From contig NC_086097.1 of NCBI RefSeq assembly GCF_963921235.1, forward strand, positions 84,508,001 to 84,572,000: a stretch of DNA of 64,000 bases. The letters are read 5' to 3'. This DNA comes from Mobula hypostoma (lineage: Eukaryota). The notes beneath the pieces were generated by a model. The model was not told the origin of the DNA. It saw only the letters and a list, made by a program, of their open reading frames with translations, and made no database searches. The position numbers and the translations under genes were made by a program. This document shows, piece after piece, positions 55,411 to 64,000 of the stretch. The number at the start of each line of letters is the position of its first letter. Position 1 is the stretch's first letter.

Positions 55411-56525
55411 GTCTGTACTCCAGTAAAGCCTTTAATGAGGTTCCACATGGTAAACTGCTTTGAAAGATTAGATTGTATAAAATTAGGGAGAGTTGGTTAA
55501 ACCGGATACACAATTGGTTTAATGCTAGGAAACAGACAGTAATGATGTAAGGTCGTAATTAATGGTGTACCTCAGGGGTCGGTTCTGGGACATTGTTGTT
55601 TGTCATCAATATCAAAGATTTGGATGTGAATGTACGAGGCATGGTTAGCAAGTTGCCAATGACTGTAAAATAGGTGGTATTATGGACAGTGAAGAAAGTT
55701 ATCAAAAATTATAGAGGGATCTTGATCAGCTGAGTAAAAGCAAGTGGAGTTTAATTCAGATAAATGTGAGTGGTTGCATTTTGGAAAGCTCAATCAAGGT
55801 TAGGACTTTCAGAGTGTATGTTATCCCTAGGGGAATGTCGTAGGATGGAGGGACCTTATAGCTCAGATACATGATCCTCTGAAAGTGGAGTCAAAGGGAG
55901 ACAGGATTGTGAAGAAGGCTTTTGGCATGTTGATCTTCATCAGTCAGGGCACTGAGTCTAAATGTTAGGAAGGCATGATGCAGTTGTACAAGACATTAGT
56001 GAGAACATACTTGTTCAAAGTTTAAAGTTCAAAGTAAATTTATTATAAAGTATATATATGTCGGAGATTCATCCAAAAACCATAACAGAATTAACGGAAG
56101 ACCACTCCTAAAGGGTGGACAACCAGGGTGCAAAAGACAATAAACCGTGTAAATACAAAGGAAGAAAAAAGAAATAATTGCAACCCTCCACTGGTACTCA
56201 TATACCAACTTGGCTCGTTAGCTAACTCTGCTAACAGCCGCCTGACTCAGCGGTGAGAAGGCCATCTTTCATAAGCAATATACGTCTGGGGTTGGTATGA
56301 TTTGGAGCTCAACCAAACAAGAATGTCAGGATGTTCCAAATGATGGAAACTCGATTTGAGCAAATTCTGTATAAATACTGCCCATACACAATTATCGGAG
56401 GCCAGAAATGACAGATAATACACCAGCATAAAATTATAAAGTATATGTACTGAATTTACAGTTACTGAAAAAAAAGGAAAAATGAAAAGGCTCATTACAG
56501 TTAAACAGTCCAATATGTACATAAA

Positions 56526-57059
56526 CCATGGTTTTCGGTCCGGCGCCGGACGCTTGGAGCGATTCGGTGGGAGGCGGGTGTCTGGTGCTCGGCTGGGGGC
56601 CGTGGTCGGCGACTTGGGCCGGGCCCCCCACCGGACTTAGTCTGGTAAGGAGGGTGTGAGGACACCCAGCAGGACTTAAAAAAAGACCTGACAAAGGGCG
56701 GATGAGCTCCTTGTGATCCAATGGCCATCTTCCATGGAAGAGATTAAAGCCTCACCACGTATCTACGAATCGTATGCTATGCACCTAGTTAGAAGAGACA
56801 TGATGAAATTGGGCGCTGCACCGTGTGCCTGGACCTGCCCAAGGCCTCCGCCTAAGGAAGGGCCGAGCTCGAAGAAGCGGCCGCGGCTGGAGGCCGACAC
56901 GACCTCGGGCTCGAGTTCAGCAGGGGCGGCGGCAGGCGATGCCAAGGTGGCTAGCAAGAACAAACTGGAGGAGAAGCTCTACTTGGTGCTGTCACAAGAC
57001 TGAAGAAGATGGAGGTGCATAGCTGCCAATCCTGGATTCGGGACAGCACCCACTGACTG
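56526..57059 (+). mobile_element. Chimeric short retroposed insertion (RTE-like 3' end plus captured host sequence)
   Basis: 11-bp TSD ATG(T/C)ACATAAA (56515-56525, 57060-57070); VRRDMMKLG...LSQD*RRWR resembles the RTE ORF C-terminus; ACTGACTG tail. Confidence 0.65.
56815..56992 (+). pseudogene. ZFTRAF1: Circularly permuted 178-bp fragment of the ZFTRAF1/CYHR1 N-terminal coding region
   Basis: 56851-56992 encodes PKEGPSSKKRPRLEA...[12 protein letters not shown]+T and 56815-56850 is GC+[11 protein letters not shown]; joined they give [22 protein letters not shown], versus recalled human [22 protein letters not shown]. Confidence 0.85.
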
Positions 57060-59149
57060 ATGCACATAAAAATTGGAGCTCATTTCTGGAGTAGTCTGGG
57101 GTGGATCATTTCACTCACATGCTGAACCCATGTTCTGCGTGAAAGCACCTGCCACAGTCTGAATTTCCCTCAAAGACCATCTCAAATGAACTGCCTCTCT
57201 CAAGAGTATTGGCCCTTCTTCCTTGGAGTTACTCATCTGCACAAAGCACTTCTTGCCAGGAGACTCTCCTTCCACCGGCATTCTGCAGCATCTTCCCTTG
57301 TGTTCCGCTCCACAGTTCCTGCTAACAGGACCCCAAACCAGATGACTGTCCTTCAGAAATCTCTTCCTGCCCAGCTTTCTAGAACCTTAGCTACATCTCA
57401 CAGTCCTGACTGGCTGACACAACATTCCTAGGTTGGACAATATGACTTCTTATTTTTAACTGAAGCTAAAACACTCTTACCAGCAGGATACACTGCTTTT
57501 ACAGAAAACTGCTAACATAAAATACCTCATAGCATAGTGGTAGAAATCTTAACCGGGGCATTACATATAAATAATAATAAATAGATCAACAGTAAGTATC
57601 AAAACATGAGATGAAGAGTCCTTGAAAATGAGTCCATAGGATATGGGAGCATATCAGTGATGGGGCAAGTGAAGTTCTCACCTTTGGTTCAAGAGCCTGA
57701 TAGTTGAGGGGTAATATCTGTTCCTAAACCTGGTGGTGAGAGTCCTGAGGCTCCTGTACCTTCTTCCTGATTGCAGCAGTGAGAATAGAGCATGACCTGG
57801 GTGGTGAGGGACCTGGCAATGGTTGCTGCTTTCCTGTGACAATGCTCCGTGTAGATGTGCTCAATGGTTGGGAGGGCTTTACCCATGATGGACTGGGCCA
57901 TATCCACTACTTTTTGTGGGATTTTCTGTTGAAGGGCATTATATTTCTATACCAGGCTGTGATGCAGTCAGTAAGTATACTCTCCACTGCACATCAGTGG
58001 AAGTTTGTCAAAGTTTTAGATGTCATGCCGAATCTTCACAAACTTCTAAGGAAGCAGAGGTGCTACCATGTTTTCTTCACAATTGCACTTACATGCTGGG
58101 CGCAGAATGGATAGGTCATCTGAAATAATAACACTGAGGAACTTAAATTTGCTAACCCTCCCCAACTCTGATCCTTGGAGTATTGTGGAGTAGTTTGAGT
58201 ATTGTGTTCAGTTTTGGTCACCCTGCCATAGGCAAGATCTGAAAAAGATGCAGAAAAGATTTGCAAATACGTTGCCAGGATTCAAGCGAATGAGTAAAAG
58301 AGAGCTTGGGCAGGTTAGGACTTTTCCCATGGGGTGTACGAGACTCATAGGTGATCTTATGGAGGTATCCTGGTGATCTTAAAATATCAAAGAGGGGTAT
58401 CAACAGGGTGAATGCACTTTTTCCCACATATTGGGGATTCAAGAACTAGAGGGAATAGGTTTAAAGGAGAGGGGAAATATTCAATAGGAACCTGAGGGGT
58501 ATCTATTTAACATACAGGGTGGTATGTATGTGGAATGAACTGCCAAAGGAAGTGGATGGGCTTGGTACAATAGCAACTTTTAAAAGGTATTTGGACAAGC
58601 ACAGGGATAGAAATGCTTTAGAAGGTTATGGGCCAAACACTGGCAAATATAGGGTCAATTTGGATGGGCATCTTGATGAGCAAGAACTAGTTGGGCAGAA
58701 GGGCCTGTTTACAGGCTTTATGAACCTTTGACTCTATGACTGTGGCTACCAAGTGTCTGGAACAGTATAAGAGCATTGTACAAATATTTGGCCACTTTTC
58801 TAACCACAGGATAAAGTTCTTTTTTCATACTTTAATGGATCCCTCATCTATCAACTGCTGTTCACTGTTCCATTTTCCATTATCTGAAAATGGAAGTATT
58901 CAATTTCTGATTACTTCTCCACAGCAATTAACCCTAACTATGAGGCAAGGAGTAAAATCCTTGGTAGCCCCATTTGGAAAAAAAATGCAGACAGTTGCTC
59001 TCAAAAGTACTAATAAATAAGTTAACTAAGAACAACTTGGCATTATTACAAATAAAAAGTAAGATTATGGGACAAAAATGGATATATCTTTCACAGACTT
59101 GGGTCATTTCTAGGCACTGCTGGTAAGAGTTCTTTGTGATAAAACTCTA

Positions 59150-62019: not shown

Positions 62020-63100
62020 GATAAAGACCAAGGAACTGATTGTAGACTTCAGGAGAGGAAAAATAGAGGATCATTGGAGGATCAGAGGTAGGGAGAGATA
62101 GCAACTTTAAATTCTTTGGTGTTACCATTTCAGAGGACATATCCTGGACCCAGCATGTACATTCAATTGCGAAGAAAGCACAGCAATGCCTCTACTTCCT
62201 TACGAGCCTGCAAAGAATTGGCATGTCATCAAACACAATCACAAAGTTCTATAGATGTGTTGTGGAGATTATATTGATTGGCTGTATCATGGCCTGGTAT
62301 GGAAACACCAATGTCTCTGAATGGAAAATCCTACACAAGGTCGTGGATTTGATCCAGTGCATAACAGTAAAGCGCTGCCAACTATTAAGAACATCTACAT
62401 GAAATGCTGTCATAGGAAAACAACATCCGTCAGAGATCCTCACTACCCAGGCTATACTCATTTTTCACTGCTGCTATCAGGTAGAAGGTACAAGAGCCTC
62501 AGGACTTGCACCACCAGGTTCAAGAAGAGTTACCACCCTTCAACCATCAGGCTTTTGAACATAAGGGGATAGCTACACTCACTTGCCCAGCCATTGACCA
62601 TAAGACCATAAGATATAGGAGCAGAAGAAGGCCATTTGGCCCATTGAGTCTGCTCCACCATTCAGTCATGGGCTGATCCAATTCTTCCAGTCATCCCCAC
62701 TCCCCTGCTTTCACCCCATACCCTTTGATGCCCTGGCTAATCAAGTACCTATCTATCTTTGCCTTAAATACACCCAATGACTTGGCCTCCACAGCAGCTC
62801 ATGGCAACAAATTCCACAGATTTACCACCCTCTGACTAAAGTAATTTCTCCAAGTATATTCGTAGTTGCTTGGATGCAACAGGCAGCTGTGGAATTCCTA
62901 CAAAATAGATATATAGAACGCAACTGGGTGACCAAAAACCATCATAGAAATTCACAAAATTTATAATATTGAAAACAACTCATTTTGTAATTTACCCTCT
63001 GGTCAAGTAAATATTCCTGGTCGCATGTCATCTTGTTCTCATTGAGATGTTCCCACAACTAATGATTTCACTTTAAGGACTCTTTATCTTGTTATTTCAT
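62020..63100 (+). mobile_element. Rex1/Babar LINE 3' half, with a minus-strand CR1 3' end nested at about 62597-62850
   Basis: KTKELIVDFRR, FKFFGVTISEDISW, FYRCVVE, SGRRYKSLRTCTTRFKKS; CCATAAGACCATAAGA tail. Confidence 0.85.
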
Positions 63101-63628
63101 CAGAATCAGAATCATGTTTATTATCACTGGTATGTGACATGAAATTTGTTAACTTGGCAGCAGCAATTCAATGCAATACATAATCTAGCAGAGGAAAAAA
63201 ATGATAAATAAAATAAAAAAAGTAAATCAATTATATATATTAAATAGATTTTAAAAATGTGCAAAAACAGAAATACTGTATATTTTTTTAAAAAGTGAGG
63301 TAGTGTCCAAAGATTCAATGTCCATTTAGGAATCGGATGGCAGAGGGGAAGAAGCTGTTCCTGAATCGCTGAGTGTGTGCCTTCAGGCTTCTGTACCTCC
63401 TACCTGATGGTAACAGTGAGAAAAGGGCATGCCCTGGGTGCTGGAGGTCCTTAATAAAGGACACTGCCTTTCTGATACACCGCTCCCTAAAGATATCCTG
63501 GGTACTTTGTAAGCTAGTACCCAAGATGGAGCTGACTAGATTTACGACCTTCCTCAGCTTCTTTTGGTCCTGTGCAGTAGCCCCTCCATACCAGACAGTG
63601 ATGCAGCCTGTCAGAATGCTCTCCATGG
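63101..63628 (-). mobile_element. Rex1/Babar LINE 3' fragment
   Basis: ESILTGCITVWYG...HPGHALFSLLPSGRRYRSL...RFRNSFFPSAIRFLN. Confidence 0.9.
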
Positions 63629-64000
63629 AAGTGATATTATTTATTGATATTTATTTATATTTGCATTTGCATGGTTTATTGTCTTCTGGTTGATCTTTCA
63701 TTGATCCTGTTGCAGTTACTATTCTACAGATTTGTTGAGTAAGCTCATGAAATTCTGTTTGCTAAATCACACCTGCTCCAGCCACAGGCAGAGATGAAGT
63801 TACTTTATTGCTGCTGGTGCTGCTCATACCTGGTGCTCAGCACGACAGAACACAAAGAGAAATCAACATTTTTGAAGAATGTTGTCTTCTCCATAGCTTC
63901 ATCGGAATGTATCAGCTGGATCAGCCAATTGTGCTAAATGCTCTGTCTACTCCACCAAGCATTCCCACAAGTGTGTAATTCTATTCAAAACTAGAATTTA

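Follow-up and report, generated by a model that had tools for sequence, protein, structure and literature searches.

The 64,000-nucleotide stretch of Mobula hypostoma DNA analysed here (RefSeq assembly GCF_963921235.1, contig NC_086097.1, positions 84,508,001 to 84,572,000, forward strand; hereafter the window) carries one copy of a dispersed, non-autonomous retroposon of the non-long-terminal-repeat (non-LTR) class. The element is lineage-specific, measures ~575 bp, is present in at least ~760 copies and is mobilised in trans by a long interspersed nuclear element (LINE). Its core is a circularly permuted piece of the first exon of ZFTRAF1 (CYHR1), flanked by sequence from the 5' region and the 3' end of the partner LINE. 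The family, a LINE-dependent composite built round a permuted piece of host exon, has not been described before; a search of the open-access literature, with repeat databases outside its scope, found no published account of the element. The family documents, in a cartilaginous fish, a composite retroposon that joins both LINE ends to a piece of a host exon.

An initial annotation of the window had read this locus as the possible fossil of a 178-bp circle, opened and integrated in the germline at this very site. That interpretation is partly supported: the ZFTRAF1 source, the exact permutation, the collinear parent and the CpG decay all stand. Integration of a circle at the window locus does not, as the locus is one of at least 759 retroposon copies with the same junction. 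What looks like a circle fossil in a single window is a copy of a repeat, and claims of this kind need a genome-wide copy check first.

The permuted exon and its parent

Direct reading of the sequence and comparison with the genome establish that 178 bases contiguous in exon 1 of ZFTRAF1/CYHR1 occur at window 56815-56992 in exactly permuted circular order. The junction predicted for a collinear parent was searched as a 26-nt pattern across the 3.48 Gb genome with up to 2 mismatches allowed; it has a single match, at locus L009 with 0 mismatches, and reversed-pattern controls give 0 matches. BLAST of the window against L009 returns the two abutting, swapped matches that the initial annotation had predicted: window 56855-56992 (block A) aligns with L009 1651-1514 at 90.6%, and window 56815-56854 (block B) with L009 1513-1474 at 97.5%. 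The two blocks are adjoining bases in L009 and stand in swapped order in the window, the outer break having neither lost nor gained a base. The one genome-wide match to the collinear junction also upholds the expectation of a collinear parent without tandem duplication.

The parental exon begins with ATG, comprises 109 codons and ends CCAG/gtacag (slashes mark junctions here and below). A protein search with its product gives 76 matches, the named ones being ZFTRAF1/CYHR1 (best E 1.4e-39). The product is 72-78% identical to the sawfish, skate and catshark orthologues, in agreement with the origin first assigned to the fragment, and its C-terminal 20 residues show 100% identity with many vertebrate orthologues. 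The 47-aa translation of block A, used as a query for longer proteins, has no match at E <= 0.01. The codons CCT AAG GAA, earlier taken as the start of the protein, are not the N-terminus of ZFTRAF1 in Mobula hypostoma. The serine-to-leucine change had been attributed to CpG decay from TCG to TTG, and the copies bear this out: the parent has TCG, and the aligned copies have TCG in 21/28, TTG in 6/28 and TGG in 1/28.

The true inner junction between B and A lies at 56854/56855, and the proposed circle closure at 56850/56851 is superseded. Block B ends GTCTA in the parent and GCCTA in the element, 4 nt upstream of the exon-1 donor CCAG/gt, and block A starts mid-exon with AGGAAGGG, preceded by CTGG in the parent. 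The ends of the parental segment, ...CTGG/AGGAAGGG and ...GTCTA/CCAGGT, share a direct repeat of 0 nt. Two signatures had been proposed for the circle junction: short direct repeats in the parent, as in microDNA, or splice sites, as in circular RNA (circRNA). The first is absent, the repeat being 0 nt; the second is absent too, as B stops 4 nt before the donor and GG, not AG, precedes A. Neither signature thus indicates a particular kind of circle. A 4-nt inverted repeat brackets the parental 178-nt segment, with CTGG at L009 1652-1655 and CCAG at L009 1470-1473 (the parent gene lies on the minus strand). This CCAG is the final 4 nt of exon 1, and the predicted RNA fold leaves the CTGG/CCAG pair unused.

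The element as a whole reads, 5' to 3', a head module H (~100 nt), a LINE 5' piece L5 (~220 nt), B (40 nt), A (138 nt) and a LINE 3' piece R (68 nt) running into (CTGA)n. Its majority sequence is 575 nt long, taken over 66 rows (65 distinct fetched copies and the window copy). In the window its parts are as follows.

56519..56525, + strand: 5' target-site duplication of the window copy, ACATAAA, found again at 57064-57070
56526..56602, + strand: head module H, GC-rich; the window copy is ~27 nt short at the 5' end relative to the longest copies
56603..56814, + strand: module L5, internal part of the partner LINE 5' region, ending ...GATGAA(A/C)TTGGGC
56815..56854, + strand: block B, downstream 40 nt of the exon-1 segment (12 codons' worth), = L009 1513-1474, 97.5%
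56855..56992, + strand: block A, upstream 138 nt of the exon-1 segment (…EGPSSKKRPRLE…KLEE-LY-VL-), = L009 1651-1514, 90.6%
56993..57060, + strand: module R, last 68 nt of the partner LINE (end of the open reading frame, stop codon, first CTGA units), as at LINE 3' loci
57064..57070, + strand: 3' target-site duplication ACATAAA; TGC (57061-57063) separates the tail from the repeat

The repeat status of the locus is evident from several searches. The 178 bases used as a query give 913 first-look candidates in the genome; the 40 that were scored are all full or nearly full length, 39 of them at 91-94% identity and the remaining one being the window copy. A 26-mer across the B/A junction, searched genome-wide with up to 3 mismatches allowed, has 759 matches on many contigs (369 forward and 390 reverse, at least 100 of them exact; reversed controls 0), and with 759 copies an assembly artefact at this junction is very unlikely. 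No further element copies occur inside the window, where BLAST returns the copy itself only and the R pattern is present once.

All three internal junctions are identical in 28/28 aligned copies (the window copy and 27 others). L5/B reads ...CTTGGGC/GCTGCACC..., B/A reads ...G(C)CTA/AGGAAGGG... and A/R reads ...GGTGCTGT/CGCAAGATCG.... Genome-wide, the search for the collinear A/B junction leads to the parent gene alone and reveals no element copy of collinear or multi-turn structure. Because every aligned copy has the same junctions and the collinear junction is confined to the parent gene, the permutation arose once, in the founder, before amplification.

LINE arms, head module and insertion hallmarks

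Both arms of the element, L5 and R, come from one LINE. A search for the opening 23 nt of R after any base other than T gives 121 exact matches, mostly after G. The 12 loci fetched from these are all 5'-truncated copies of one LINE, with a long open frame for the C-terminal part of reverse transcriptase that ends in the tail, and in all 12 R is preceded by ...GCCAGAAAAAGAG. R (68 nt) with (CTGA)n aligns with the ends of 12/12 LINE 3' loci at 90.8-97.3%. Longer LINE copies carry Exo_endo_phos and RVT_1 domains in a single frame, and the LINE spans at least ~3.3 kb in copy L054. For the other arm, BLAST of L5 from one element copy against 14 LINE 5' loci aligns the full 174-nt stretch at 85-89% in 8/14 and shorter or longer stretches at 79-91% in 5/14, with 1/14 unmatched. 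In the alignment, at the point where the element switches to GCTGCACC (block B), the LINE goes on ...CTGGGC(C/T)CCTTGCGAGCG into its own open reading frame and endonuclease domain. This LINE-specific continuation past L5 has 28 matches genome-wide (up to 2 mismatches). A non-element source of L5 was also sought at the L5/B junction, with a pattern ending in letter H, and was rejected: 10/10 fetched loci are element copies with CpG>CpA decay.

The success of the chimera shows in an element count far above that of partner LINE copies with a 5' region: 759 element junction matches (up to 3 mismatches) stand against 28 LINE 5'-region matches, obtained with a different pattern at the stricter limit of up to 2. 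Such an excess is expected from LINE 5' truncation. Within 58 kb of one strand (G000:C36:108941845-108999686, minus) there are three R-pattern matches of a single variant, which may mark a local segmental or tandem duplication containing the element or a LINE end. Four open frames elsewhere in the window, at 62067-62402 (+), 63315-63650 (-), 57689-57946 (-) and 58465-58731 (+), resemble by eye the C-terminal part of the reverse transcriptase of another, abundant LINE (FYRC.VE..L.GCI..WYG...LPSGRRY.SL) and are unrelated to the partner LINE.

The window copy bears the marks of retrotransposition. In 27/27 aligned copies the 3' end falls at window 57060, with a clear run-on into (CTGA)n in 25/27, whereas 5' ends vary (window-equivalent 56524, 56538, 56556, 56572, 56591, 56628, 56688 and others). 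Exact flanking repeats of at least 7 nt occur in 22/64 copies; a control in which flanks were re-paired between copies averages 1.15 and never exceeds 5. The copy in the window is a decayed, 5'-truncated family member with an ACATAAA duplication. It arrived by retrotransposition (target-primed reverse transcription), as follows from the family junctions, the LINE-type 3' end with (CTGA)n, the 5' truncation and the target-site duplications. With its LINE-shared and fixed 3' end, target-site duplications, variable 5' truncation and dispersed copies, the family has the properties of a non-autonomous LINE-mobilised retroposon. Reintegrated extrachromosomal circular DNA (eccDNA) would appear as a unique insertion without retroelement hallmarks, which the window locus is not.

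The head module H is GC-rich and very CpG-rich, contains a Kozak-like ACCATGG and starts near CTTCCGGTTTGG (for example in copies L072 and L028); longer copies reach ...CTTCCGGTTTGGTCGCC, ~27 nt past the window copy. It is absent from 10 aligned LINE 5' regions, which carry different, mutually conserved upstream sequence, and BLAST of one full-length element copy against the 14 LINE 5' loci gives no match to H. The best 30 of 332 H candidates are all full-length element copies, with 5' starts within a few bases of each other, and yield no non-element source. Likewise, the single match to an H junction pattern ending in letter V is a 5'-truncated element copy. ARAGORN finds no transfer RNA (tRNA) in the element, and neither the window copy nor a full-length copy has a credible Rfam match; Yar_1 (outside the element), sR32 and P15 were rejected as identities, their scores lying far below the gathering scores. 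The tRNA, 5S or 7SL head with internal RNA polymerase III (Pol III) promoter that defines a canonical short interspersed nuclear element (SINE) is not present. H may supply a promoter.

A tandem GTGGTCGA/GTGGTCGG unit occupies the H/L5 boundary in most copies; the window copy (56600-56610) has one unit only. A seeming truncation hotspot at 56602 was discarded, being a BLAST break at this tandem unit.

The family majority contains one 122-codon open frame at nt 201-566 (window 56692-57003, + strand) that runs from L5 through B and A into R. B is out of the ZFTRAF1 frame, A is in the native ZFTRAF1 frame and R is in the LINE frame, ending at the LINE stop in the tail. The window copy keeps 103 codons of the frame, an early stop having arisen by CGA>TGA decay. 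The in-frame joins may be functional (for example, in allowing translation up to the LINE stop) or may be due to chance, at 1 in 3 per junction.

Origin of the founder

The founder probably arose during target-primed reverse transcription, when a LINE reverse transcriptase switched templates and copied once round a ZFTRAF1 RNA that was either circular or re-entered, the family being amplified afterwards. We infer this RNA-level route, and what kind of ZFTRAF1 template it used, from the sequence of the element. The enzyme would copy 68 nt of LINE RNA, switch to ZFTRAF1 exon-1 RNA at ...GTGCTGT and copy back to AGGAAGGG. Copying would then resume at ...GTCTA, 40 nt downstream of the entry point, and halt exactly at entry; the enzyme would next return to the 5' region of LINE RNA and finally move on to H. 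The exact halt would follow if the template was a small closed RNA circle (178 nt) copied for a single full turn; alternatively, the enzyme may have re-entered the same linear RNA, where a second pass would meet the RNA:cDNA hybrid of the first or a 5' end cut there. The chimeric insertion, retaining the LINE 3' recognition end, would then be transcribed and amplified. A reverse transcriptase switching twice onto the same mRNA had been listed as an alternative in the initial annotation; it comes close to this reading, in which the switching is itself a deduction.

Orientation and content argue for template switching. The exon piece has the same orientation as both LINE arms, is wholly exonic and replaces ~2.9 kb of LINE. 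Template switching requires the same-sense orientation, whereas DNA capture gives it half the time. The loss of ~2.9 kb of LINE and the gain of the 178-nt insert would both follow from a single event with template switches. The same-sense LINE 3' fusion, exon-only content and abrupt junctions are those of LINE template-switch chimeras. The exact one-turn permutation constrains the origin of the founder and would offer a concrete case for a LINE reverse transcriptase copying small circles or re-entering an RNA in vivo.

Several points weigh against this reading or limit its detail. All junctions are blunt (0 nt microhomology), which makes reverse transcriptase jumps and DNA end-joining indistinguishable. 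An ordinary back-spliced circRNA was not the template, as B/A does not lie at splice sites; a circle of RNA or DNA from exon 1 is a possible but hypothetical intermediate in the founder. In the minimum-free-energy fold of the parental RNA (z = -1.83) no stem closes the 178-nt domain, and a stem bringing the segment ends together was rejected, the ends being unpaired. The number and order of template switches are incomplete because the source of H was not found. The partner LINE is assigned by architecture and not by phylogeny, as an RTE-like element with apurinic/apyrimidinic endonuclease and reverse transcriptase (APE+RT). Divergence from the family majority averages 6.0% over the copies (3.1% outside CpG sites) and is 6.9% for the window copy (3.7% outside CpG sites), figures that are low in that the 66 copies are top-scoring or exact-pattern matches biased to young copies.

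A closed circle as template is a tentative further reading. The B-A order may be a one-turn copy of a small closed circle from inside exon 1, either a non-back-spliced RNA (for example, one made by a ligase) or eccDNA of mononucleosome size. The back-spliced form, with donor CAG/gt joined to ...GGAG/GAAGGG, was rejected as the simple explanation: it predicts GTCTACCAGGAAGGG, and its CC is absent in 28/28 copies. On the circle reading, LINE reverse transcriptase or repair machinery would have used a 178-nt host circle as a germline template, and the ~760-copy family would be a natural amplified record, in a cartilaginous fish, of a circle-templated event rather than a dead fossil.

Capture of a DNA circle is a less likely route, on which a microDNA from the exon-1 CpG island was linearised once and ligated into a broken full-length LINE with loss of ~2.9 kb, giving rise to the master copy of the family. 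A single cut would yield the exact permutation without base loss, and the blunt junctions, the 178-bp size and the GC-rich source at the 5' end of a gene are all in keeping with it. In the germline, eccDNA sizes have their peak near 180 bp, with enrichment at 5'UTRs and in gene-rich regions, according to the part of the literature source available (PMC10581685). Against these stands the need for a separate large deletion, capture inside a LINE and later replacement of the LINE 5' end by H, and the same-sense orientation would be only a 1-in-2 outcome. The segment is confined to the exon, ending 4 nt before the intron, and the window locus has hallmarks of retrotransposition, not of circle integration. 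Direct-repeat microhomology at the parental circle junction is 0 nt; microhomology is, in the same partial source (PMC10581685), found in only about a third of eccDNAs and hence not obligatory.

A pre-formed chimeric RNA is improbable, although it would account for the same-sense orientation, blunt junctions and exon-only content as template switching does. Here an exon-1 fragment would be circularised, re-opened and ligated (for example, by an RtcB-type ligase) between LINE RNAs, followed by one uninterrupted reverse transcription. For U6/L1 chimeras, the accessible portion of a preprint weighs RNA ligation as one of two possible mechanisms (bioRxiv 10.1101/2025.02.02.635956). This route needs at least 4 ligations and 3 cleavages in the correct order, and by sequence its product is indistinguishable from that of template switching. 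Least probable is a multi-step DNA rearrangement from a collinear A-B element through a tandem duplication A-B-A-B and two deletions or inter-copy recombination to B-A, completed before most of the amplification, since two independent breakpoints must hit the same parental nucleotide and the collinear A/B junction is found in the parent gene only (up to 2 mismatches), even though internal tandem duplications such as the GTGGTCGA/GTGGTCGG unit are known in the family.

Relation to known systems, age and distribution

Composite LINE-mobilised retroposons, both the SVA/LAVA type and LINE-derived SINE-like elements, are short and modular; they number hundreds of copies, end 3' in a sequence that a LINE recognises, and show target-site duplications and 5' truncation. 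Their modules can be host-gene pieces. The element differs from SVA/LAVA-type composites in having no Pol III head match, no poly(A), an APE+RT LINE partner, a (CTGA)n tail and a permuted exon core.

Chimeras made by LINE machinery form a second point of comparison. A tripartite LINE chimera in Magnaporthe was reportedly made by template switching or RNA ligation (PMC2104539). The portion of the preprint at hand treats both as accepted routes to LINE chimeras, and its U6/L1-type chimeras resemble the element in their same-sense LINE 3' fusion, several jumps per event and blunt junctions (bioRxiv 10.1101/2025.02.02.635956). In the same portion, LINE chimeras are mostly dead-on-arrival single insertions, whereas the element kept the LINE 3' recognition end and 5' region and propagates. 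It differs further in the permuted order in which one of its templates was copied.

CircRNA-derived pseudogenes have been described as non-collinear fragments of genes whose multiplication is linked to retroelements, with non-circle routes also allowed (Dong et al. 2016, Cell Res, PMC4897178). These resemble the element in being many-copy host fragments with a non-collinear junction (33 for mouse circRFWD2), lacking poly(A) and associating with retroelements; the authors leave room, too, for reverse transcriptase passing through open-ended RNAs with nearby ends (PMC4897178). The element lacks their donor-acceptor junction, since its own lies within one exon, stopping 4 nt ahead of the donor, and A has no AG in front of it. 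It comprises exactly one turn, set between LINE 5' and 3' parts, has a microsatellite tail and, in a cartilaginous fish, numbers ~760 copies. Should any of them be transcribed, ~760 back-splice-like ZFTRAF1 junctions will mimic circRNA reads in Mobula hypostoma RNA-seq. A similar concern applies to circRFWD2, whose pseudogenes look like the reads that map to the circRNA (PMC4897178).

Two systems involving small circles are also alike in part. MicroDNA and small eccDNA share the 178-bp size, GC richness, 5'-genic origin and circular topology, and their heritable reintegration is not described in the available part of the source (PMC10581685). The element, on the other hand, has no junction microhomology and its locus in the window is a retroposon copy. 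Metazoan retrozymes are reported to be non-LTR elements that cycle through small circRNAs, with LINE reverse transcriptase as the presumed copying enzyme (PMC7229834, PMC7761336). Retrozyme RNA circles measure ~170-400 nt. Retrozymes are characterised by hammerhead ribozymes and tandem units, whereas the element consists of dispersed single units with no ribozyme family at E <= 1, and so is not a retrozyme.

The majority sequence of B and A differs from the present parental exon at 3/178 positions (98% nucleotide identity). Since the piece is 98% identical to its own exon, against 72-78% between the exon protein and those of other rays and sharks, capture would appear to be later than the splits from these lineages. 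Public sequencing runs under several organism labels, together with three skin-metagenome runs, contain 0.33-0.62 of 42 sampled 31-mers from one element copy; the run of one further organism label contains only 0.12. This content fits the family occurring under other organism labels, and no dating is drawn from it. In the three skin-metagenome runs 43% of the sampled 31-mers of the element copy are present, presumably from host DNA in the samples.

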